From a virus (taxonomy: Duplodnaviria; Caudoviricetes): a stretch of DNA of 64,000 bases. Location of the stretch: IMG/VR virus record IMGVR_UViG_3300046408_000009, positions 1-64,000 of that record; one strand, given 5' to 3'. Positions 35,383 to 62,043 of the stretch are shown here, piece after piece. Each line of letters begins with the position of its first letter. Position 1 is the stretch's first letter. Under the pieces are notes generated by a model that was not told the origin of the DNA, searched no databases, and saw nothing but the letters and a program-made list of their open reading frames with translations. The position numbers and the translations under genes are program-made.

Positions 35383-35525
35383 GCGCTTCGATTCGCTGGA
35401 TTCAATTTCTGGGCTAGTTTTTCTGCGTACGCTGCCCGTTCCTCGTCAGTCATCTCATTGATCTTCTTGGGCGGCTTCGAAAGAAAAACCAAGGGTTGCT
35501 TGTTCGCGTCGTCGTTATCACTCAT
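35379..35525 (-). CDS. 48-aa protein coupled to the toxin-like gene (candidate antitoxin/immunity)
   Basis: MSDNDDANKQPLVFLSKPPKKINEMTDEERAAYAEKLAQKLNPANRSA; start overlaps the upstream stop (ATGAGTGA) and its stop overlaps the next start (ATGA). Confidence 0.75.
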   Translation of the reverse strand: MSDNDDANKQPLVFLSKPPKKINEMTDEERAAYAEKLAQKLNPANRSA

Positions 35526-37113
35526 CTTTTTTCACTCCAGTTCCACCTGTGTTTATAGAAGCGAACGTTGATAGGTCCGTAATGGCTATCTGGTCTCGCT
35601 CCGCACCAAGTGCTTTTGCAAATTCTAGCGCATTTTCTCCGGGTGGAATCACCTGAGTTACATCCAAATATGCAAGTCCAGTGTCATTGCCCTTGTCATC
35701 AACGGCGTGCCACCCACCCAGGTACATTCCGTCTTCTGCCAATTTATCTGCATTTGCAGACATGAACGCATCAATTTGACGACCCATGGGTGACGTGCCG
35801 TCTGGACCGATCTCGAATTGATCCGGAGTTGCCGGAATCGCGCCAGACGAATGCGGGTCCCCCACGGCTACCGCGTAGGGTCCCTTCCCACTACCGTCAC
35901 CGGTTCCCGGTGGTAAGTCGCCCGTAAACGGATCAAGGGTGAATCCTCCATCGGGATCACGAAGATCGTTGCTATGTATTGACGCCAGCGCCCCCGCCGT
36001 CGTAGTAACCGGTGCATTGGGTTTCGTGTCCGACACAATTGATCGGTCGTTGTTAACCAGAATTGCACGATCTACTTTTGGAGAGTTCTCGTCAAATGTC
36101 ACACGTGGCGGAGTACGTCCATCATCGGTCAGCGGCATATTTGCAATAATATTGAGGGGGACAAATCGACCACCGCGCTGATATCGACCAGTGGCGTTCT
36201 TAATACTCTCTTCCTTAGTGGCGTCGATAAGGATCATTGTTGTGTCGTAGTGCTCGTCGGTCACTTCCTTGATTGCATCCCAATATCTGTTGAATTGAGC
36301 ATTGCTTTTCATCGTTGAGTCAATAGCGATGTTTTTGCTCTGTGCCGCCGCCTGTTGAACAATCATGCCAGCGACGGTCGACTTCTCGTCCTGTATGAGT
36401 GTGCCCACCTCTTCGGGCGATAGCCCCAGGGCACTGTAATCGGGGATCATTCCCATGGACTGCATCACCACACCAACATCGTCGGGGTTAGCAACCACGT
36501 AACTTTTCGGATCGATACCTAACTCGGTAGCGTGTCCCGGTTGTGCATCTTGTCCCGGTCGAGCAGCACTACCGTTGAGAAACGTCGACTTCCCCGCGCC
36601 CGGTAGTCCAGCCATGATAAGTAATTTGTGGTCGGATTCGATTCCCGGTGCGTTCAGAAAAACGTCCGCAACTTTTTGCTGTTGCTCAGTTCTTTCCTTC
36701 GTGTACATCCCCACGTGACCCTCAACCATGTCGTAGACGGATCGGGTGTCGAGTTTTTCTTTCATGCCAATGTTTTGTCGAGCAACAACATCGGTCATGT
36801 GTTCTTGTAATTCTTCGGGGGTCATATTCACCAATGCCGAAGATGGTGTTGGCGCGGGTGCACTATCGCCGCCGCCATCGCCGCCGCCATCGCCGCCGCC
36901 ATCGCCGCCGCCATCGCCGCCGCCATCACTGGTCCATCGACCGTGATCATCACGAGGCTCATCATCGTTGTACTCAGCACGCATATCAAGCAGCAACACC
37001 ATTGCAGAGATCGTGGAGAAAACTGCACAGATTTCACACGCGTCATTGTGAAAGTCAGGGTGGACGCGCTCGCGCATCTCGATGATTTCTGAGGTTGACA
37101 GAAGCCTAGGCAT
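35518..37113 (-). CDS. Zeta-toxin-like P-loop kinase fused to a second C-terminal domain
   Basis: YTKERTEQQQKV...LIMAGLPGAGKST, VVANPDDV, IAIDST; N-terminal EPRDDHGRWT motif; separate ~140-aa C-terminal domain. Confidence 0.8.
   Translation of the reverse strand: MPRLLSTSEIIEMRERVHPDFHNDACEICAVFSTISAMVLLLDMRAEYNDDEPRDDHGRWTSDGGGDGGGDGGGDGGGDGGGDSAPAPTPSSALVNMTPEELQEHMTDVVARQNIGMKEKLDTRSVYDMVEGHVGMYTKERTEQQQKVADVFLNAPGIESDHKLLIMAGLPGAGKSTFLNGSAARPGQDAQPGHATELGIDPKSYVVANPDDVGVVMQSMGMIPDYSALGLSPEEVGTLIQDEKSTVAGMIVQQAAAQSKNIAIDSTMKSNAQFNRYWDAIKEVTDEHYDTTMILIDATKEESIKNATGRYQRGGRFVPLNIIANMPLTDDGRTPPRVTFDENSPKVDRAILVNNDRSIVSDTKPNAPVTTTAGALASIHSNDLRDPDGGFTLDPFTGDLPPGTGDGSGKGPYAVAVGDPHSSGAIPATPDQFEIGPDGTSPMGRQIDAFMSANADKLAEDGMYLGGWHAVDDKGNDTGLAYLDVTQVIPPGENALEFAKALGAERDQIAITDLSTFASINTGGTGVKKDE
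36865..36927. repeat. Perfect tandem repeat (ATCGCCGCCGCC)x5 encoding (GGGD)n
   Basis: Directly visible 12-bp units. Confidence 0.95.
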
Positions 37114-38580: not shown

Positions 38581-40143
38581 TCACATCTGCTTCGTGAGTA
38601 AATCACCGGTAATCATGGCGTCCAAGTTCGGAGTCATCGCAGTTGGACCCTTAGTGGGGACCAGACTATAGACAGCCGCGTCACCACGGTCGGGACTGTT
38701 GAGATGACGGGCACGCATCTCGTCCTTACTCTCAACTTGTATCTGACCGTGCGAATTTATCTTGTAACGAATCGAGGTGAGTTGTGCAATCAATTCTTCA
38801 TCATCGGGATCGAGATCAAGACGACCATCTTCTCCCGTACCGCTATATCCAGCCAGCCATTCACGCATTCTCCACCACCACTCACTGCGAGCGTTGAAGA
38901 ACTTTGGTTTACCCCCCGGCAACACTTCGTCTTCGCTGCATCGCGCTGACGAGATCAGTGCATGGACTGGATACCCCTCTTCCGTCAAGATGTCAGTCAC
39001 GCCACCGCCCACCCCCGTATCGTCAATGTTTGCAATCGGGGTATTGAGGCGACCATTACCGATCATTTGGATGTGACCGGCTAGTTCAGTAACGGGACCG
39101 TACGCGATGTCCTTGACCACCCGTAAGTGCCCACCGCGACGTAGAACAATGATTGAATGGTCGGTACCGTAGCGAGCAACGTCCACCCCCATCCACGGAT
39201 CAACGTCGACCGGTGGAATCTCGCGAGCGCACGCCAGAGTCACCAGGTGCGGGTGGATGAGAGTGTTGTTGGTGACGTTTGGGAATTTTCCACGCACGCG
39301 AGACGTGAACAACGGACTGCCAATTCCCCATCGCTTGATACGGTCATTCACCCACGACGGCGTCACGAGAAGATCACGCACTTGCGATGGAATGGATTCG
39401 GTGCTGGGTTCGATACCCTCACTGATCATGATCGCTCGAACGGCGGGGTACTTATTCACCTCTTGCGCCGTGAAGTTAGGGCTGCGCAGCGCGTCAGCGT
39501 GAATGACGTTCCAACCCGACCCTGGTTGGCAAATCTTCTCGAAGTAACTACTGGGATCATCGGGGTTCCCCACCGCCACGATACGGGCGAGATCGTTAGT
39601 GGCTAGCGATTCTGCGGCATCAAAAATTCCCTGTGACACTCCGCACGCCTCGTCAACGATTACTAATACAAATCTGGCGTGAATTCCCAAGAACGACCCG
39701 GCGTCGTAGTCCGCAGGCTTACGACCGTAGGCAACGATTTCATCGGGACCCGACCCCATATCGAGTTTCCAGACACAGTCGGAAGTCAAACGTCCTCTCA
39801 ACATACCCTTGCGATGTGCACGAGCGAGTTCCTTCCAAAGAATTGTTTCGACCTGGGACCACGTCGGTGCGGTCGTCACTACGAATGCTTCGCCCGGTGG
39901 GTGGGTCTCGATCCACCACGCAGACAATCGAGACGCCGTAAAAGATTTGCCAATCGAGTTGCTGGAGTGTACAACCGTGTGCTTATTTTTCACCACACTG
40001 GCAAGGATTTCTCGTTGTTTCTCCGTGGTGTGTTCGCTCAATCGAGAGTCAATCCACCCCGCTGGGTCGTCAGCGAACGGAGATTTTGGCGGATCAAGTC
40101 GATCAGAGAAAATCGAGAGTGGATCGTACGCCTTGATATTCAT
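38581..40143 (-). CDS. terL: Terminase large subunit
   Basis: Walker A SNSIGKS, Walker B VIVDEA, GNP coupling motif, nuclease GVDVARYGTD and SPDRGDA. Confidence 0.95.
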   Translation of the reverse strand: MNIKAYDPLSIFSDRLDPPKSPFADDPAGWIDSRLSEHTTEKQREILASVVKNKHTVVHSSNSIGKSFTASRLSAWWIETHPPGEAFVVTTAPTWSQVETILWKELARAHRKGMLRGRLTSDCVWKLDMGSGPDEIVAYGRKPADYDAGSFLGIHARFVLVIVDEACGVSQGIFDAAESLATNDLARIVAVGNPDDPSSYFEKICQPGSGWNVIHADALRSPNFTAQEVNKYPAVRAIMISEGIEPSTESIPSQVRDLLVTPSWVNDRIKRWGIGSPLFTSRVRGKFPNVTNNTLIHPHLVTLACAREIPPVDVDPWMGVDVARYGTDHSIIVLRRGGHLRVVKDIAYGPVTELAGHIQMIGNGRLNTPIANIDDTGVGGGVTDILTEEGYPVHALISSARCSEDEVLPGGKPKFFNARSEWWWRMREWLAGYSGTGEDGRLDLDPDDEELIAQLTSIRYKINSHGQIQVESKDEMRARHLNSPDRGDAAVYSLVPTKGPTAMTPNLDAMITGDLLTKQM

Positions 40144-40153
40144 TGACGGAATG

Positions 40154-40729
40154 CTACCGCCTAGCCCCACACCACATTGCAAGTCGCATTGGTTCCGTTC
40201 GTACCGCGAGACGAGTACCAAGAAACCCTGCGGCTGCTTGTACCATCATGACGTGCGTGGAGCAAATAACGTGATCGCTCCATGACGCGTCGAGTTGTAG
40301 CCCAGTTGCGTCGTCAACGATGATCGCGGGATACTCGAACCACCCGTAATCTGCTCCCGACATCGCGTTATCGAACTGCGCTGCTGCTCTGCGTTGCGTA
40401 TCGTCAATGTCAAACGACACCACGGCGTACAGCCGTGCTCGATACGACTCCAGTGGTCGACGCTCGTACCCCCAAAATCCCATCTCAGAAATCATGGGTA
40501 CGATTGCGTCGCTGGTCCGGATAACACCCGCGTGCCCGCACCATGTATATCCGTCGAGTGCCGGTTCGCGAATAGTTGCAATTTTTTCCGCGTCTTCAAT
40601 CAACGTCGACGCAATGGTTCCGTGATCCACGAGGATGATGTCGGTGTCTTTCGGGTTCTCGCAGTGCTGACCTCTCTCGAAAAAACGAACCGTGAGTGGT
40701 GGAATAACAAGTTGAAAGTCTTCGTTCAT
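40154..40729 (-). CDS. Permuted papain-like amidase (YiiX/YaeF-like)
   Basis: His before Cys: DIILV...WCGHAGV...GADY...VICS. Confidence 0.7.
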   Translation of the reverse strand: MNEDFQLVIPPLTVRFFERGQHCENPKDTDIILVDHGTIASTLIEDAEKIATIREPALDGYTWCGHAGVIRTSDAIVPMISEMGFWGYERRPLESYRARLYAVVSFDIDDTQRRAAAQFDNAMSGADYGWFEYPAIIVDDATGLQLDASWSDHVICSTHVMMVQAAAGFLGTRLAVRTEPMRLAMWCGARR

Positions 40730-43913: not shown

Positions 43914-44396
43914 CTAATATCCACCAGTACAGAAACTGGTACCCGGTGCTTGATCCGGCCACCATCCATATGGCATCAGAACACCGTTCCAACGCAATCG
44001 AGTGTGGTTCACGAAGTGCGCCATAGCCCACGCTTGTTGCGCTGGTGTGGCATCAGCCATGCTCGCGGGGAACGATTTTGCTTTCCACATTGACCACAAC
44101 CCGTTCATCCAACCCAACCCGCCAGAATACGTCCACCCGCGTACGTGCCAATTGCCGCTTTCTTCGCACACGTCCACGCGGGACGCTTTTTGCATGATGG
44201 CGTCACTCACTAATGGGGGGTGAGCAACGAACCGATGATGGGTAGTTGATCTATGAAATATTTTGATGTGCGGGATCGACGCTCGCTGCGTCGACGTGTG
44301 GTGCGCGTATGTGTCGGCAGTGGCTACCGGCGCAACGCCATTGGAAATTAGTAAAAAGACAATAGGGATGAGAAGAGTTCTCTTGAGACGGATCAC
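43914..44396 (-). CDS. rpf: Secreted resuscitation-promoting factor (Rpf)-like lytic transglycosylase
   Basis: Signal peptide, His/Thr linker, then VCEESGNW...YSGGLGW..GLW...ADATPAQQ...WWP...C matching the Rpf consensus (CExGGNW, YxGGxQF, ATREEQ, WP..C). Confidence 0.8.
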   Translation of the reverse strand: MIRLKRTLLIPIVFLLISNGVAPVATADTYAHHTSTQRASIPHIKIFHRSTTHHRFVAHPPLVSDAIMQKASRVDVCEESGNWHVRGWTYSGGLGWMNGLWSMWKAKSFPASMADATPAQQAWAMAHFVNHTRLRWNGVLMPYGWWPDQAPGTSFCTGGY

Positions 44397-44445: not shown

Positions 44446-46137
44446 TCATAGTTGCTTAACCTCCCTCGCCAGCGTGTCGTCTGCCTTTAGTTCCCCCCGG
44501 CCCTCAATCAGTTCGAGACCGCGTAATTTCGATAGTGAATTTGCAAATCCACTTGACGTCGGTGAGTAATTCGTCGCGGCTGCAATATCGTTCTTGTCCA
44601 TACTTTTAGGCCACACATCAACCAGTGTGCGCAAAATCGCAGACTCACATTTACCAAGTTTCCCCAACCAATGTTGAAGTAGTTCCGGCCCAGTAGCGAG
44701 GGGTTCGTAGTTTCCCTCGATAGCCAAACTGCCAGAACCAGTGATTCGCAAATCTCCACGACCTTCGATAAACCCTAATGTCCGCAATCTACTCAACGAA
44801 TTCGCGAATCCGCTTGATCGTCCACTGTACTCGGAAAGCGTGGCCACCTGTTGGCGAGATCGTCCTTGCGGGAACTGAGCCAAAACACTAAGAATCGCAC
44901 GCTCACAACGACCAAGACCGATTTCTCCGTTATCTTGAGAATCTGTTCTACTTACTTTTCTCTCAGGGGTCTCGAAAATTCGAAGAGGTTGAGATACAAC
45001 TGGCGCACGAGAATCTTCTCTCACTGTCTTAGCCGACCCACTGACGAGAATCTGTTCACGAAGTTTTTGTAATTCCTCATCTATTGACTGCAGTCCCTTT
45101 TCAATGGACGTGACCCAATCGGGGACAATCTCAATAATTTTCTCAACTGTCACAGTCTCTACCGTTGGCTTTTGCGTCTTAATTTTTTGTTCGAGTTCTA
45201 CAATTTTCTTTCGCAGTATTTTTGGGTCATCACCTTGTGCACGTTCGATTGACGCAGCCATTTGAGTTTTCAATGAGCCGAGATCAATATCTGCGAGAGT
45301 AGCCACTTTGCGTTTCTTGCCCACCTCCGGCGTTGCTCCGGAGTCGAACGTTTCGCGACGACGAAATTTATGTTTGGCAGCAATTTGCAACCACTGAGGT
45401 GACACAACCCACGCGATACCACTGGACAGTTTAGGGAGATCGTCCACGATTGTTCGGGACTCTGCGTAGTAGTCGATCCACCCCAGGATTGCTTTACGGT
45501 CATTCGCGCCTGTGGTGCGAAGTGCAAACAACGTCTGGGCTTGACTGAGTACATCCTTGTTGACGCTGGCACTGCGCTGGGAAATGATCGAACAACCAAG
45601 ACCGCGTTGTCGACCACGCTTAACGATTAACGTCCACGCGTTCACACACTTGGCTTGGTCCCCTCGAACCATCTGAGGAAGATACTCGTCCGCCTCTTCT
45701 AAGAACAGGTGTCGTGGCTGCAGACTTTTGGCGTGCAGTCGAAAAAGAGTCTGTGCAAATTCAGTGAGAAATCTCGTTTGCGATGCCTTTGATGGAAAAT
45801 CCGAGACGTCGAGAATACACGTCAGATTAAACGTATCCACCAGTTCCGCAATAAATTTCCCGCTCTCCGCTTCTAATGGAAGATCACCGTGAAGCCCTCC
45901 AAAGATGGGAATAGGAAGACCGGGTTTGCGCCCCGTAGAGTCTGACCGCATCCCCCACCAGTCACCCTTAGGGTCAACGGCCACCCAGGGTAAGCCGTTC
46001 TTATACATCTCCTCCGCCATAACCACGGCGGCATTCGACTTACCAGCACGCCCCACGGCCAGCAGTGCAAAAGTCTCCGTGACCGCCTCAAGGGGAAGGT
46101 CAAACCCTGGACCAACGTGCAGCATCGCCGCCGTCAT
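44446..46137 (-). CDS. HerA/FtsK-superfamily ATPase with two C-terminal winged-helix repeats
   Basis: AVGRAGKS Walker A, HLFLEEADE Walker B, GRQRG..IISQR..V.K.VLSQ motif; duplicated CE.AIL...SSGFANSLS.LR.L..IEGRG. Confidence 0.85.
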   Translation of the reverse strand: MTAAMLHVGPGFDLPLEAVTETFALLAVGRAGKSNAAVVMAEEMYKNGLPWVAVDPKGDWWGMRSDSTGRKPGLPIPIFGGLHGDLPLEAESGKFIAELVDTFNLTCILDVSDFPSKASQTRFLTEFAQTLFRLHAKSLQPRHLFLEEADEYLPQMVRGDQAKCVNAWTLIVKRGRQRGLGCSIISQRSASVNKDVLSQAQTLFALRTTGANDRKAILGWIDYYAESRTIVDDLPKLSSGIAWVVSPQWLQIAAKHKFRRRETFDSGATPEVGKKRKVATLADIDLGSLKTQMAASIERAQGDDPKILRKKIVELEQKIKTQKPTVETVTVEKIIEIVPDWVTSIEKGLQSIDEELQKLREQILVSGSAKTVREDSRAPVVSQPLRIFETPERKVSRTDSQDNGEIGLGRCERAILSVLAQFPQGRSRQQVATLSEYSGRSSGFANSLSRLRTLGFIEGRGDLRITGSGSLAIEGNYEPLATGPELLQHWLGKLGKCESAILRTLVDVWPKSMDKNDIAAATNYSPTSSGFANSLSKLRGLELIEGRGELKADDTLAREVKQL

Positions 46138-53076: not shown

Positions 53077-53267
53077 AATCACTCCCTCTGGATAGAGAAC
53101 GATGCCACTACGATGTGACGGGTTACCCCATTGACTTCGAGAACCGATGTATGCGACGTGCGCGTTGGGTACTTGAATCACCTACCCACGGCAAACATGA
53201 AAATTTTGCACGCAGCACGCCAATCATGGAACGTCATGGGTGGAAGAATCGAGTTGAATTCAAGTGA
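53073..53267 (+). CDS. Hypothetical protein
   Basis: ATGA overlaps on both sides. Confidence 0.6.
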   Translation: MKSLPLDRERCHYDVTGYPIDFENRCMRRARWVLESPTHGKHENFARSTPIMERHGWKNRVEFK

Positions 53268-53890
53268 TGAAAACACTCGAACTATTCTCCGGCACTGAAT
53301 CATTCTCCAACGCCGCCCGCGAGCGCGGACACCAAACATTCACATCGGACTTCGATCCACAATTCGATAGTGACTACACCGTCGACATCATGCAACTCGA
53401 TACCGCACGTCTCCCGTTCCGACCCGATGTGTTGTGGGCGAGTCCACCATGTGAGACATTCAGCGTTGCCAGCCTTGGTCGATATTGGTGGAAGGACGAA
53501 GATGGTCTCCACCCTAGGAATGACATCGCTCGCGCGGGTATCGCCCGCGTCGAGAGAACGTTAGAGATCATCGATGAGTTACAACCAAAAGTCTGGATTA
53601 TCGAGAACCCCCGTGGGGCACTGCGCAAGATGAAATTCATGCAGGACTTTGCACGATACACCGTGACCTATTGCCAATATGGTGACGTCCGGATGAAGCC
53701 CACGGACCTGTGGTCGAATGTTGATGATCTCGTATTCAAACCGATTTGCAAAAACGGGGCACCGTGTCATATCGCTGCACCTCGCGGAAGTCAGACTGGA
53801 ACGCAGGGACCTAAAAGTTACCTTGAGAAGTCTCGTGTCCCACATCAACTGTGTGTGTGTGTGGTCCAACAATTCGAGGAAAGGATGTGA
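53264..53890 (+). CDS. Short DNA (cytosine-5)-methyltransferase-like protein
   Basis: LELFSG (I), WASPPCETFS (IV), IIENP (VI), QYG..RMKPT (VIII). Confidence 0.85.
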   Translation: MMKTLELFSGTESFSNAARERGHQTFTSDFDPQFDSDYTVDIMQLDTARLPFRPDVLWASPPCETFSVASLGRYWWKDEDGLHPRNDIARAGIARVERTLEIIDELQPKVWIIENPRGALRKMKFMQDFARYTVTYCQYGDVRMKPTDLWSNVDDLVFKPICKNGAPCHIAAPRGSQTGTQGPKSYLEKSRVPHQLCVCVVQQFEERM

Positions 53891-54962: not shown

Positions 54963-55234
54963 AGTGGCTTACCGCACGCTGGGCAGAAATTATACCCGTC
55001 GCTCTTCCATATTTTGTGCGATGCACTGTTTTGGTACCAACACTTCAACAGATCACGAGTCATTACGACGTCCTCAATTCGTTGCATAAACATCTGCGCA
55101 TCGTCGGGTGTTGAAAATCCTCGAACCGTTAGGGTGACGTTTGCGCAAAATCCGTCGAGACGTTCATCAACCGCGTAGGGGACAATACTTTCGTCACGCG
55201 GGTTGGCGCGTCCGAATTCGTCCCATTCCATCAT
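54959..55234 (-). CDS. Hypothetical protein with C-terminal Zn ribbon
   Basis: KCW...YNFCPACGKPL. Confidence 0.75.
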   Translation of the reverse strand: MMEWDEFGRANPRDESIVPYAVDERLDGFCANVTLTVRGFSTPDDAQMFMQRIEDVVMTRDLLKCWYQNSASHKIWKSDGYNFCPACGKPL

Positions 55235-55875
55235 GGATTCGCTTTCTTAAACTGTTGCGCGAACTTCTGGCTACAGAGACTTCGAAGATCGGCGTCGGTG
55301 TGTACAGAATCTACAAACGGCGCGAACTCTTTTATGCGATGCACCATGCTTTTATGTTCAACGGACAGTGCCGGTTTTCTCCCCGGTCGCTTCCAGAACG
55401 AATCAATTTTGTTAGGAACTTCTTCAAAGGTTTTGTATAGTTTAGGTGGTGGATTAAACACTCCCCATAGTGCCGTCTTTTTAGTCCAGGGACTTCCGTA
55501 TTCATAGGGTTGATATGTCCAATCAGGCTTCCCTAGGAAATCACGCAGACGCCCCGTGGCCGGGTTTTCGATCACCCACCAGACGGGTGACGATGCGTCG
55601 ATAATTCGTAGACACTCATTGACCAATGCCATTCCATTTTCAGGACTACGCGCCTTCCCGCCTTGACGAGCGGTGGAAAACTCTGTACAGACCGGATTGG
55701 CAATAATTCCGTGAACCTCCTGAGGAGGGCAATAGTTTTCAACTCCTATATCTTTCCCGATGCGAATGACGTGATAATCAGGATCAACTTGGTAAGGCCA
55801 CGAATCGCTGCCCGTGTCCGCGCATAGATGAAGAATTGTTTTCAATTTCGTCTTTCGTCTTTCGTCTCTGGTCAT
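55231..55875 (-). CDS. Divergent DNA cytosine methyltransferase-like protein
   Basis: TILHLCADTGS (degenerate motif I), IANPVCTEFS (IV), WVIENP (VI), YGSPWTKKTALWG (VIII). Confidence 0.75.
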   Translation of the reverse strand: MTRDERRKTKLKTILHLCADTGSDSWPYQVDPDYHVIRIGKDIGVENYCPPQEVHGIIANPVCTEFSTARQGGKARSPENGMALVNECLRIIDASSPVWWVIENPATGRLRDFLGKPDWTYQPYEYGSPWTKKTALWGVFNPPPKLYKTFEEVPNKIDSFWKRPGRKPALSVEHKSMVHRIKEFAPFVDSVHTDADLRSLCSQKFAQQFKKANP

Positions 55876-56189
55876 GGCTTCAACGTCATCACGCAATTGA
55901 TCACGTCGCCCGTGATTTTCCGGTCCTCGTGTTCGATCTCCAACGCGATGCGTGGCAGAGAACCGACCACCAAATTGTCGGCTCGCCCGCGCAACAGACT
56001 GTACGAAACATTCTCCTCGCGCACAAGTTCGATCTTCACTCGCGGCCAAACGCCGCGCCGTACCTTGTCCGCGAGTTCTCGCAGAGTGACGATTGCGCTA
56101 TCCACATCACTGTCGTTCCCCGTGAGGGGACGGGGTCCGAGTTCAGAGATGGCTAAGTAGATGTCGGTAAGGATTTCGTCTTTCGTCAT
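55872..56189 (-). CDS. Hypothetical protein (leaderless)
   Basis: ATG 6 nt after TACACT (56201-56196); TTGCAA and CTGCAAA boxes upstream. Confidence 0.75.
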   Translation of the reverse strand: MTKDEILTDIYLAISELGPRPLTGNDSDVDSAIVTLRELADKVRRGVWPRVKIELVREENVSYSLLRGRADNLVVGSLPRIALEIEHEDRKITGDVINCVMTLKP

Positions 56190-56309: not shown

Positions 56310-56630
56310 TTACGGACGCGGTTTACGGACCCGAATCTTCTCGCCGTTACGCGGAGTGGGGACGGAATGTCCCAGCGCGATGGCCTCGATGCGCCGCGCG
56401 AGCCACGTCGAATTCTGCGCCCACTCGCGAGCGTTCTGGTGGCCCTTGCGTGAGTTGCAGGGGTAGCACGCCGCCACGAGATTATGCAGCGCCTGCGTGC
56501 CGCCGTGCTTGACCGCGAGCACGTGATCAACGGTGGACGTCTCGCGCGTGATCGATACGCCGCACCAGTAGCAGCGCCCACCGCTGAGTTGAAATATTTG
56601 CAACTTGCGAGACCGCTTCACGTAGGACAT
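56310..56630 (-). CDS. HNH endonuclease
   Basis: GRCYWCG...TVDHVL...GG...NLVAACYPCNSRKG. Confidence 0.9.
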   Translation of the reverse strand: MSYVKRSRKLQIFQLSGGRCYWCGVSITRETSTVDHVLAVKHGGTQALHNLVAACYPCNSRKGHQNAREWAQNSTWLARRIEAIALGHSVPTPRNGEKIRVRKPRP

Positions 56631-56709
56631 CGATTGAGCATATCCGGGGAGGTCCGCAGTCCCCACCGCCCATCCCCGTGAAGTGGGGACCGCAGACGCG
56701 CAGAGTGTA

Positions 56710-57954
56710 TCAGTGTTGGGGGTCCGCCGCTTGTGCAATCCGACCTTCGATAATTGGGTAGTAGTCCTCAGTGATCTCACAGCCCACCCACTCGAATCCT
56801 TCGAGGATCGCTGCCGCCGCCGTCGTGCCGGAACCCAAGAATGGATCGAGCACTTTGCCACCCGGTGGCGTCACGAGGTTGATGAGGTAGCGCATTAGTG
56901 CGAGCGGCTTGACGGTGGGGTGGTGGTTCTTGTCCTCGACTCCAGCACTTCGTTCGGACTTGCTGGCTTTAGCGCAATAGAAGAATCGAGCAGCGGAACC
57001 ATCGTCGTTGTACTCAGTACCCGTTGCTGTCATCCCCCAGCCTTTTCCATTTGCACCACTGCGCGGTTTACCTTTACGTGACGGTTTTACTGATGGGAAT
57101 GCGTTGAGCACTTCGTCGCTACCGTCGTGGATGATGTTGGCGGGCCATCGGCCCTCCGGCAGTTCATAGCGGGTGGCAGCGCCCTTACTGTAAACTCCGT
57201 TTGCGCCAATGGTTCCAACGGTGTGTGGGTTCTTTGCATAAATCGAATCATCCTTGGATTCAATCAGTACGCGTGAGGCGTCAATGTTCAGTGCCCCCGT
57301 ACCATACTCCAAAACGTTCTTCACCACCGTCCCGACGAGGGGCTTCCGAGCGACGACGATTGGTTCGTGAGCGGGCTTGAGCGCCGTACCCCAGCCTTGC
57401 CATTTTTGTGCGTCGGGTGTCGATTCGCCCTTGCGAGTGAGTTGGTTGTTTGTGTTGTTGTACCCTCCGGCACCATCTGGGTTCATGAACCCAACACCGC
57501 TCGCAGGTTTCGATGTGAACTCAACACCAGCCGACTTGTCGATGGCCTTGGATACGTCCATAGACTTCGGGAACCCCGAGCCATACAGCCACATGATCTG
57601 ATCGCGTATCTCAAACCCCGCATCCTCGATTGAACTGGCGATTCGGTGATAGGTTCGCGATCCACCAAACGCGAGCAAGTGACCACCCGGCTTCAAGACG
57701 CGCAGGGCTTCGACCCAGAGAGCGACATTATAGGCGATTCCCGAATTGTCCCAGGATTTTCCCATAAAGCCGAGTTCGTAGGGTGGATCGGTGACGATGG
57801 AATCGACACTGTTAGCGTCGAGCGTCTTTAGTAGAACGAGGCAGTCACCCCGGAGTAGTCCTACTTGCAAATGTTGGTCCGGCGGTCCCACCCAAAAATC
57901 ATCTTCGTCGTACTCGTCAACATCGATCAAAACTGCGGGTTCGTCGTTCGTCAT
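56710..57954 (-). CDS. DNA N6-adenine/N4-cytosine methyltransferase (beta class)
   Basis: VTDPPY catalytic motif before the VLDPFLGSGTT SAM-binding motif; LKPAHEPI, HPTVKP. Confidence 0.95.
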   Translation of the reverse strand: MTNDEPAVLIDVDEYDEDDFWVGPPDQHLQVGLLRGDCLVLLKTLDANSVDSIVTDPPYELGFMGKSWDNSGIAYNVALWVEALRVLKPGGHLLAFGGSRTYHRIASSIEDAGFEIRDQIMWLYGSGFPKSMDVSKAIDKSAGVEFTSKPASGVGFMNPDGAGGYNNTNNQLTRKGESTPDAQKWQGWGTALKPAHEPIVVARKPLVGTVVKNVLEYGTGALNIDASRVLIESKDDSIYAKNPHTVGTIGANGVYSKGAATRYELPEGRWPANIIHDGSDEVLNAFPSVKPSRKGKPRSGANGKGWGMTATGTEYNDDGSAARFFYCAKASKSERSAGVEDKNHHPTVKPLALMRYLINLVTPPGGKVLDPFLGSGTTAAAAILEGFEWVGCEITEDYYPIIEGRIAQAADPQH

Positions 57955-60386: not shown

Positions 60387-60515
60387 CTAGTGATGGCGAT
60401 CTCGTGGCTTCACGGGCCATACGGCCAGCACCGCGCTCACCAGCAGCGCGATCACCAGGCACACGAAGGGTCCAATCACGAGCACGGCCAGCAATAACCA
60501 CATCCACCAGGGCAT
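60387..60515 (-). CDS. 42-aa membrane peptide
   Basis: MPWWMWLLLAVLVIGPFVCLVIALLVSAVLAVWPVKPRDRHH, translated by hand. Confidence 0.7.
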   Translation of the reverse strand: MPWWMWLLLAVLVIGPFVCLVIALLVSAVLAVWPVKPRDRHH

Positions 60516-60519
60516 GGTC

Positions 60520-61345
60520 GCCACCCTACAGCACAGCGCGTTGTCTACTTTCGAAAATCGGCGTTATCACCATCGAACGATTTTCGTTTTCCCTGATGAG
60601 AGGCTATGAAAACACGCATAAATCCTCATTTTCTATCAGCCCATAATATACGTTATGTAAAGTTGATGTGGAAAAAGCCAAGTTGATGAGGTTTTATGCA
60701 GAAAGTTTTTGCAGAAAAGGCTTGCCCCCCACTGATCCCAGCGACTAGGTTGTTGGTGGCGGAGAAATCGATCTGCAGGTCGAAATCCCATCACTGTGAA
60801 ACCAGTTCTGCGCGAGCAGGAAACTTCCGATCTTGCCCAGCGGTGGGTTGTCGTAGGTGGTTATACCATCGAGGCACCATCGACTGGGCATTTTCGTTTT
60901 TCGGGTCGACTCGAAAATTGCAAATCTCAGAACCGAAAATTGCAGAATTTCGGCTAAACGAAAAATTCGGTACGCGGGTGGCATGGTTGGATGGGCGGAT
61001 GGTCTCAGGGGGCTTCCTCAAAACACTTCTATTTTAAACGAATTTCCCCCTCATCAGGGATTACAGACAGTTTCCGGGGTTTGCTCCTATTGTTACTCCT
61101 AGTTTGCATTTCGTGCATGCCTACTCCCTATACCCCTTACTCACTCTCACGTTTAGTATTTAGCCTTAAATACTGTCCTAACTGTCTAAGTGTCATATAA
61201 TACCTGATAAGGAGCAACCCAACCGACTCCAAAATCGTCTACAAACTGTATTCGACTGTCCTACCCTTTTCGGTTGGTTCGCCCCCAAAAAGCGAAAATC
61301 CCGTCCGCTGACAGATGCGAACGGGACCTTCACTAACGAATCATG
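60520..61345. other. Long AT-richer non-coding region, putative replication origin / recombination region
   Basis: No credible ORF; direct repeats CGAAAATTGCA (60912, 60934), inverted repeat TCCCTGATGAG (60590/61050), AT-rich hairpin 61155-61174, strand-skewed tract. Confidence 0.5.
60636..60663 (+). other. dif: dif-like XerC/XerD recombination site
   Basis: TCAGCCCATAA-TATACG-TTATGTAAAGT in the 11-6-11 layout; right arm 1 nt from B. subtilis dif (TTATGTAAACT) and 2 nt from E. coli dif (TTATGTTAAAT). Confidence 0.75.
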
Positions 61346-61351
61346 TAGGGT

Positions 61352-61744
61352 TCAAACAGTCTCCTCTCCACTCGACGGTCGATCAATGAGCGTCAGGTAG
61401 TGAATCGAGACGTATTTTCGTTGCGTCGGTCCACGACGTAAGAACGCTTCTTCGCCGTTCAGCCCCGCCACGGTCCACCCGTTTCCAGCAGTCGTATGGT
61501 GCACGACGTCCCCGATTTTCGGGTAATACGTCACGGGGAAATTCGGCCTCTTCCCACCGGTTGCCACGCGTTGCACCGCTGGTGTCTCTTCCGAATACCC
61601 GTTGATCACTATCTCAATGGCGACGTCCATCGTGCCCGCCGAGACATCACGCGGCAGTCGGTCTCGACGCGCCCTCAGTGCCGTCACGAGCCGTTCGAGC
61701 GCGTCAGACGATACACCGGCCCAGTTGGTGTCATTGGTGCTCAT
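61352..61744 (-). CDS. Hypothetical protein with C-terminal SH3/KOW-like motif
   Basis: PKIGDVVHHTTAGNGWTV. Confidence 0.7.
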   Translation of the reverse strand: MSTNDTNWAGVSSDALERLVTALRARRDRLPRDVSAGTMDVAIEIVINGYSEETPAVQRVATGGKRPNFPVTYYPKIGDVVHHTTAGNGWTVAGLNGEEAFLRRGPTQRKYVSIHYLTLIDRPSSGEETV

Positions 61745-62043
61745 TGGAACCCTCCGCTCCATGTTTTACGTTTGGCGACTCGACGTTCTTGTGATCCGGC
61801 GTGACGTACGCAAAACGGTCCGAGCCACGATCCATCCACGTCAAGGACTGAGACGTGTCCGTGCAGGGTGCAGCCCTTGAACCACACGCAGGGTTCGAGT
61901 TCTCGCTGTTGCGCGAGCGCGTGCGTCTTGCAGAAGTACCCCACCGGCACGATCCGATTCGAGTCGATCACGACCCAATTCCCTTCCCGGCCACAGCCGT
62001 TTTGCACACAGGTCACCCGTGCGATCTCGCGAATTGTGATCAT
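61741..62043 (-). CDS. Cys/His-rich protein with internal duplication
   Basis: Two similar units: C..NGC...GYFCKTHA and C..KGC...GPFCVRHA. Confidence 0.7.
   Translation of the reverse strand: MITIREIARVTCVQNGCGREGNWVVIDSNRIVPVGYFCKTHALAQQRELEPCVWFKGCTLHGHVSVLDVDGSWLGPFCVRHAGSQERRVAKRKTWSGGFQ

Follow-up and report, generated by a model that had tools for sequence, protein, structure and literature searches.

A full-length dif-type site on a large contractile-tailed phage without an integrase

What is an apparent copy of a bacterial chromosome-dimer-resolution site doing on a large tailed phage that encodes no integrase? The question is raised by a 28-bp sequence in a virus of the Caudoviricetes, IMG/VR record IMGVR_UViG_3300046408_000009. 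This record is 75,046 bp long and rated 100% complete; its bases 1-64,000, the whole stretch of DNA that was first presented for analysis, are here called the window. The 28-mer, TCAGCCCATAA-TATACG-TTATGTAAAGT, lies at window positions 60636-60663 (+) in a long non-coding gap and resembles dif, the site on which host XerC and XerD act. A first-pass annotation of the window had proposed that this phage either integrates at the host dif site or persists as a circular replicon resolved by host Xer. Our analysis suggests that the phage borrows host XerC and XerD by means of a near-perfect dif copy. The parts of the earlier interpretation that stand are a bona fide dif-type site, the lack of an integrase, and an indicated host group; we found no direct evidence for integration or for an Xer-resolved circular replicon.

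The 28-bp site and the phage that carries it

The 28-mer consists of two 11-bp arms separated by a 6-bp centre, with an inner inverted repeat ATAA/TTAT (...CATAA-TATACG-TTATG...). Its XerD arm fits the consensus TTATGTnAAnT and is identical at 11/11 positions to the dif arms of Arthrobacter, Brachybacterium, Renibacterium, and Catenulispora. The sole departure from the actinobacterial consensus is a C at position 7, where 40/40 classical actinobacterial sites have G (GCCGATAA). We built a position weight matrix (PWM) on 40 distinct dif sites of actinobacteria (Kono et al. 2011, PMC3025954, suppl. 2) and scored the phage site with it. The site reaches 30.6 of a possible 45 bits; the runner-up on either strand of the genome has -2.6. 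In 500 genomes simulated with a first-order Markov model, the highest scores averaged 2.7 and peaked at 18.4, so that none of the 500 came near the phage site, and the chance estimate is ~1e-4 per genome (2^-30.6 x ~150,000 positions). The 28-mer is the sole match at ≤3 mismatches in the whole record, and neither arm is repeated elsewhere in the window. Judged by its sequence, the 28-mer is thus confirmed as a genuine dif-type site and a chance look-alike is excluded, which bears out the original description. It is probably a real Xer substrate. Binding by host XerC and XerD is the natural reading because of the arms, the spacing, and the host-identical centre, and binding, catalysis, and the choice of partner site are inferences.

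The carrier is a large phage with nearly all of its genes on the minus strand. The contractile tail postulated earlier is borne out, since both a tail sheath (phrog_23, E 4e-26) and a tail tube were matched; an HK97-type capsid, a Mu-type portal, and a tape measure were also identified. The large terminase (38581-40221) is <42% identical to the terminases of Streptomyces, Arthrobacter, and Microbacterium phages. The phage has its own replication set, comprising PolA, a primase-polymerase/D5 helicase, an SNF2 helicase, a PD-(D/E)XK nuclease, AAA_24, and DUF669. Pfam and PHROG scans of ~60 proteins yielded, besides structural and replication proteins, methyltransferases, an HNH endonuclease, ThyX, and a zeta-toxin domain, and zero lysogeny-related families.

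The absence of an integrase holds across the complete genome, in which tyrosine recombinase (PF00589) and serine recombinase (PF00239) profiles had zero matches at E≤1. The same was true of ParB (PF02195), and no ParA-type ATPase (PF01656) was found, so that the search of the whole genome for parAB, proposed in the first-pass annotation, had a negative outcome. No S24 peptidase was found in the phage genome. The sole HTH_3 match in a repressor search was weak (14 bits), and most of the small genes belong to no family.

The genome assembles as a circle with 127-bp identical ends. This overlap probably stems from the assembler (its k-mer) and a genome that is circular or circularly permuted, since ends of equal length occur in G001, the nearest relative. 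A Logan contig from SRR35490542, an independent assembly, is 100% identical over 8.6 kb spanning the dif site, and therefore the site is not an assembly chimera. Exact-protein look-ups returned one Logan contig only, identical to the window.

Host-lineage dif sites and related sites in other viruses

The first-pass annotation had suggested that the site might identify the host through its chromosomal dif, and comparison with the dif sites of Actinomycetota, including Acidimicrobiia, did yield a lineage-specific match. A search for CCCATAATNTACGTTATGTAAAGT in one genome for each of 185,579 species gave 7 matches, all in metagenome-assembled genomes (MAGs). The titles of 6/7 name Actinomycetota, Acidimicrobiales, or Acidimicrobiia, and the title of the remaining one an uncultured bacterium; each of the five that were checked has exactly one relaxed dif match. 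One of the seven is the Acidimicrobiales MAG G006, and in a sample of 401 genomes belonging to its class, 55 have exactly one CCSATAA-N6-TTATGTAAAGT site. Position 7 is C in most of these single sites, and their centres are diverse. The GCCCATAA arm is therefore shared with a host lineage, being the XerC arm of Acidimicrobiia/Actinomycetota MAGs, and a site with the arms GCCCATAA and TTATGTAAAGT, present once per genome, points to that group as the source of hosts.

The closest family, named after G151, comprises 7 small genomes of 1.5-1.8 Mb. Four carry CTAGCCCATAATATATGTTATGTAAAGT and a fifth (G037) a close variant. The phage site agrees with the dif of this family at 25/26 bases over positions 3-28 and at 25/28 overall. 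All seven genomes match the XerD model, six of them at least twice and G239 once, and one of the two matches in G111 is interrupted by stop codons. In the three genomes for which both coordinates are available, an Xer-type gene lies ~17-19 kb from dif.

A metagenome contig, L031, carries CTCCCCCATAATATACGTTATGTAAAGT, which is identical to the phage core at 24/24 contiguous bases, a stretch that takes in the entire crossover region, and at 24/28 overall. This site adjoins chromosomal genes for a DEAD/DUF3516 helicase, a DAHP synthase, a DUF1846 protein, and a ParE toxin. Placement of L031 in the same host class is improbable: its DUF1846 gene was unmatched in 251 class genomes, and we found no synteny with the loci of the named MAGs. 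The contig is probably from another lineage, and our host assignment accordingly goes no further than a bacterium whose dif is of the Acidimicrobiia type.

Positions 1-3 of the phage site differ from the hosts, which are themselves variable there. The flanks are unrelated in every phage-host comparison and the core alone is common to both. Capture of a host fragment would account for this less well than selection for the site or a product of site-specific exchange. As a separate observation, 50 of 71 matches on metagenome contigs (L025-L095) share CATAATTTACATTATGTAAAGT. These contigs have ~40% GC, and many of them come from lake samples; CATAATTTACATTATGTAAAGT is presumably the dif of a low-GC freshwater lineage, for which Bacteroidota is our guess.

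The exact 22-mer of the phage occurs in no other IMG/VR contig. The broader motif CCSATAA-N6-TTATGTMAAGT is present in at least 119 IMG/VR contigs (L106-L224), compared to 4 for a reversed-pattern control. The following figures refer to the matches listed, which represent 60 sequence clusters. Only 19% of the motif sites fall in open frames of at least 150 aa, compared to 70% of random positions in the same loci, and the sites are thus mostly intergenic. A tyrosine recombinase is encoded by 5/47 motif records of at least 16 kb, and is missing from 9/11 records rated ≥90% complete, whose lengths are 33-124 kb and several of which have terminal repeats. The orientation of the site relative to the coding strand shows no bias across 55 clusters (16 same, 23 opposite, 16 ambiguous; p = 0.34). 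Together with the clade described next, these data suggest that Xer sites recur among tailed phages, whatever purpose they may serve.

One tailed-phage clade carries a dif-like 28-mer in frame inside its large-terminase open reading frame (ORF). There it encodes [TA]LH[NK]xxYG[RQH] within a 59-115-aa low-complexity insertion that is missing from 532-aa homologues and from the terminase of the phage studied here. In an unbiased retrieval of this clade, 19/19 arm bases were kept at 81-90% protein identity and every centre was different. If the embedded site were used at dif, insertion would split, and excision rebuild, the packaging enzyme. We found no split-terminase prophage at dif in 401 genomes, and a truncated terminase in G013 was rejected as such a case since it has no dif nearby. 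A 31.7-kb viral contig shows a further arrangement: at L165:1047-1132, ATCGCCGATAAGTATTATTATGTAAAGT and two variants of it form a tandem array of three dif-like sites with a period of 29 bp.

Surroundings of the site

The gap that holds the site, 60516-61351, contains zero ORFs with the pattern of GC content at the three codon positions (GC1/GC2/GC3) that marks the real genes of this phage. It is empty in an independent gene call on the Logan contig and has zero Rfam family matches. The earlier statement that this is the only long non-coding region stands, on the codon-position pattern and the Logan gene call, for this part of the genome. The dif-type site falls in the most AT-rich 100 bp of the gap (GC 0.36), ~120 bp upstream of the first gene in the next minus-strand block. 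The inverted repeat that brackets it (Table 1) is possibly an accessory or regulatory element, or due to chance. A sigma-70-like promoter overlapping the site was rejected as a candidate, being a weak match (9/12) of a kind no more frequent than in shuffled sequences.

Table 1. Features in and around the non-coding gap, and the terminase-embedded site of another clade (window positions unless a locus is named)
Feature	Position	Strand	Basis or remark
dif-like XerC/XerD core site, 11-6-11	60636..60663	+	sequence; PWM 30.6 bits; single copy
Putative XerC-binding arm TCAGCCCATAA	60636..60646	+	positions 4-11 (GCCCATAA) equal the Acidimicrobiia/Actinomycetota MAG dif arm
Central 6-bp strand-exchange region TATACG	60647..60652	+	identical to L031 centre; 1 base from TATATG (G151 family)
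Putative XerD-binding arm TTATGTAAAGT	60653..60663	+	11/11 with Micrococcales and Acidimicrobiia MAG dif arms
835-bp non-coding region with the site	60516..61351		no coding GC1/2/3 ORF; Logan gene call empty; no Rfam match
14-nt inverted repeat bracketing the site	60616-60629 / 60686-60699		13/14 complementary; single-stranded DNA fold z = -2.4
Direct repeat AAGTTGATGNGG, two copies 20 bp apart	60660..60691	+	repeat search; copy 1 overlaps end of XerD arm
Terminator-like hairpin following the upstream gene	61315-61300	-	within the gap
42-aa hydrophobic protein, first gene downstream (transcription direction)	60387..60515	-	coding GC pattern; Logan gene call
130-136 aa protein, last gene before the gap	61352..61762	-	no Pfam/PHROG match; Logan call is 130 aa
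Terminase-embedded site	L170:7664-7691; also L109, L110, L114, L140, L188, L197, L213, L239, L244		proteins P0123-P0166

Cumulative GC skew over the whole genome (G000) has its maximum at ~33 kb and its minimum at ~70 kb, beside the primase gene. These extremes are half a genome apart and may reflect bidirectional replication of a circular form. The dif-type site coincides with neither, and the skew gives no reason to place it at a replication origin or terminus.

Several other genes of the window deserve mention. A 531-aa protein with a zeta-toxin kinase domain (PF06414, E 1.6e-12) is encoded at 35518-37113 (-), between the portal and head genes, and could be an ejected effector or part of an addiction module. 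The accessory region contains, within 5 kb, three DNA methyltransferase genes and an HNH endonuclease gene (53264-53890 (+), 55231-56049 (-), 56710-57954 (-), 56310-56861 (-)). Residues 31-232 of a 563-aa protein (44446-46137 (-)) resemble the C-terminal (nuclease) part of large terminases (phrog_2666, E 5.5e-16); this ORF stands apart from the real terminase. The ORF at 43914-44396 (-) was considered as a secreted Rpf, which would have been a hint to the host, and was rejected because it has zero Pfam/PHROG matches at E≤1e-3. Its sole match, with 45% identity across 102 aa, is to an ORF of the viral locus L172.

Use of the site and its meaning

We favour integration at the host dif, with a probability of about 0.4. 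The 28-mer would be a functional copy of the host chromosome-dimer-resolution site, in the variant of Acidimicrobiia-type Actinomycetota. Once the phage genome has circularized, host XerC and XerD would bind the two arms, the bound site would pair with another dif, and strands would be exchanged at the borders of the central region. The likeliest partner is the chromosomal dif, in which case the phage site would serve as attP, and the phage, resembling the Xer-exploiting integrative elements discussed below, would enter and leave the terminus region of its host without an integrase of its own. A host partner is favoured because recombination with host dif would constrain the centre, whereas recombination between phage copies would not. 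Splitting the genome at the site would break no gene, because transcription units meet there and the gap around it is non-coding. Every characterized phage-borne dif mimic is an attP (PMC12715192, PMC4246890, PMC6744903). Integration of this kind would be a first for a large tailed phage.

Several observations weigh against integration. In its gene set, which includes PolA, primase-helicase, SNF2 helicase, exonuclease, AAA_24, and DUF669, the phage resembles virulent phages, and the genome has no recognizable repressor or excisionase-like gene and no XafT/DUF3653 Xer activator. In E. coli and V. cholerae, FtsK-activated XerCD efficiently removes an element that has a complete dif on either side. 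Known elements that exploit Xer escape this excision through defective or mismatched sites, and the phage site is neither. We found no device for FtsK-independent or irreversible integration here, as the arms are intact, the centre is identical to that of a host, XafT is missing, and the single-stranded fold is weak (z = -2.4). The integrated copies themselves were also sought, in a thin sampling whose negative outcomes are absence of evidence. All 71 metagenome matches have non-phage flanks and zero junctions, and a DNA search of 5 candidate host genomes matched the dif core and nothing beyond it. The terminase has no close homologue in the 401 class genomes or the 7 G151-family genomes, and a second dif-like site, as would flank an insert, was present in 0/55 matching host genomes. 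The phage-host junctions at dif that the first-pass annotation had proposed to look for were thus found neither on metagenome contigs nor in the class genomes nor in the closest family.

The nearest complete relative, G001, can also be set against integration: this phage, whose core genes show ~65% nucleotide identity, lacks an integrase and any dif-like site (best 0.1 bits). G001 also lacks homology over 43.8-69 kb, the ~25-kb accessory region that holds the site, and its lack of a site therefore neither supports nor refutes a function. The flanking 212-aa and 136-aa proteins have zero relatives in IMG/VR, and the 212-aa protein had one weak match among 5.8 billion proteins. A nearby methylase was rejected as a route to relatives, since its homologues sit in unrelated actinophages.

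The site invites comparison with several known systems. Mobile elements that exploit Xer to integrate (IMEXs) include CTXphi, VGJphi, and TLCphi of Vibrio cholerae, other inoviruses, and dif-type double jelly-roll (DJR) vibriophages (PMC12715192, PMC4246890, PMC6744903, PMC9226527). Like them, the present phage combines an integrase-less genome with a dif look-alike, in which XerC and XerD arms surround a 6-bp centre, and some dif-type DJR phages likewise carry a full-length 28-bp mimic. The documented IMEXs are, however, small non-tailed phages, satellites, and islands, mostly of Proteobacteria, whereas this phage is a 75-kb contractile-tailed one with a probable Acidimicrobiia-type host. The known ones use a folded single-stranded site, a mismatched centre, a defective XerD arm together with XafT, or a repressor module, none of which was found here, and they differ also in that no integrated copy was found for this phage. 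The site resembles chromosomal Actinomycetota dif (PMC3025954) in layout, in both arms, and in the style of its centre, but resides on a phage genome instead of at a chromosome terminus. ColE1 cer, pSC101 psi, and the dif of secondary chromosomes offer a parallel of another kind, as extrachromosomal replicons without a recombinase that rely on host XerCD. The cer and psi sites have ~180 bp of accessory sequence and often a 6-8-bp centre diverged from dif, whereas the phage has a full dif core, and accessory elements are at best hinted at by the inverted and direct pairs of repeats beside it, which have no tie to accessory proteins. In contrast to those plasmids, no plasmid maintenance genes were found in the phage. 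Phage P1, finally, is tailed as well and has one short site for a tyrosine recombinase, loxP, that is usable for circularization and dimer resolution; its Cre-lox system can circularize injected DNA that has the site in both terminal repeats. P1 supplies its own recombinase, partition, and replication modules, whereas this phage would depend wholly on host enzymes for recombination.

The P1 and plasmid parallels lead to the most serious competing explanation, which we consider somewhat less probable than integration: host XerCD would recombine two copies of the phage site, either to monomerize or unlink circular multimers in a plasmid-like carrier state or during early theta replication, or to circularize terminally repeated DNA. 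A complete dif with intact arms is typical of replicon dimer resolution and not of stable IMEX insertion, and such a use needs neither repressor nor integrase, which agrees with the lack of both. The assembly of the genome is circular, and the long non-coding gap that holds the site, with small genes in a block beside it, is a place where physical ends or terminal repeats of the genome might also be located. In the other clade, the motif embedded in the terminase gene is near the usual packaging start, and its centre varies freely among close relatives, as it should if identity between phage copies alone counts. The zeta-toxin domain protein is at most a faint hint of plasmid-type addiction. 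Against this use, ParA, ParB, and plasmid-type maintenance genes were not found. Complete XerCD-dif recombination ordinarily depends on FtsK acting at a septum that is closing, a condition that lytic infection would seldom offer. The present site is moreover ~20 kb from the terminase genes and away from the skew extremes, and exchange between phage copies leaves unexplained a centre that matches host centres exactly or at all but 1 base.

Explanations without recombination appear improbable. The site might bind XerC/XerD or another protein unproductively, as a decoy that titrates Xer or stalls the resolution of host chromosomes, as an element like an operator, or as a place where small Xer-dependent satellites land. 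Its position just upstream of the next minus-strand block, the overlap with a promoter-like sequence, and the flanking repeats, of which the direct one abuts the XerD arm, are compatible with such a role. The promoter-like match is nevertheless the weak one rejected above, a decoy or operator needs neither both arms nor the exact 6-bp spacing nor a host-identical centre, and we found no precedent in the literature. We give similarly little credence to a functionless passenger, either a dif fragment of a host or mobile element recently acquired by one phage lineage or a chance match. This explanation draws on the siteless G001, on the fast turnover of the surrounding 25-kb accessory region, and on the fact that the phage is known from two identical assemblies only, which provide no measure of purifying selection on the site and in that respect count against integration as well. 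Chance is excluded by the simulations above, however, and random capture would rarely catch the one 28-bp dif of a several-Mb genome and would bring flanks, of which there is no homology. The motif class is in addition ~30-fold enriched in viral contigs and avoids coding sequence.

The exploitation of host Xer is textbook biology for filamentous phages and is recently extended to double jelly-roll phages. We found no report of it for tailed phages in the literature. Xer exploitation as such is already known, and what is new here is that a large tailed phage carries a full dif of the host type. The enrichment of the motif among viral contigs and the sites embedded in terminase genes suggest more than an isolated case. 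We tentatively extend the proposal, with rather less than even confidence, to large tailed phages of Acidimicrobiia-type and other Actinomycetota at large: these may routinely do without an integrase and use XerC/XerD through a full dif, for chromosome entry or for circularization and monomerization. The present phage, dozens of integrase-less 33-124-kb IMG/VR genomes, and the terminase-embedded clade would be instances.

If these proposals are true, Xer exploitation extends from small non-tailed phages to Caudoviricetes, and dif becomes a candidate integration hotspot in MAGs. The 28-mer would be a marker for host prediction, here for Acidimicrobiia-type hosts, for which we found no cultured phage-host systems in the literature. 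Phages scored as virulent for want of an integrase may then be temperate or episomal, which would alter lifestyle predictions in viromics.

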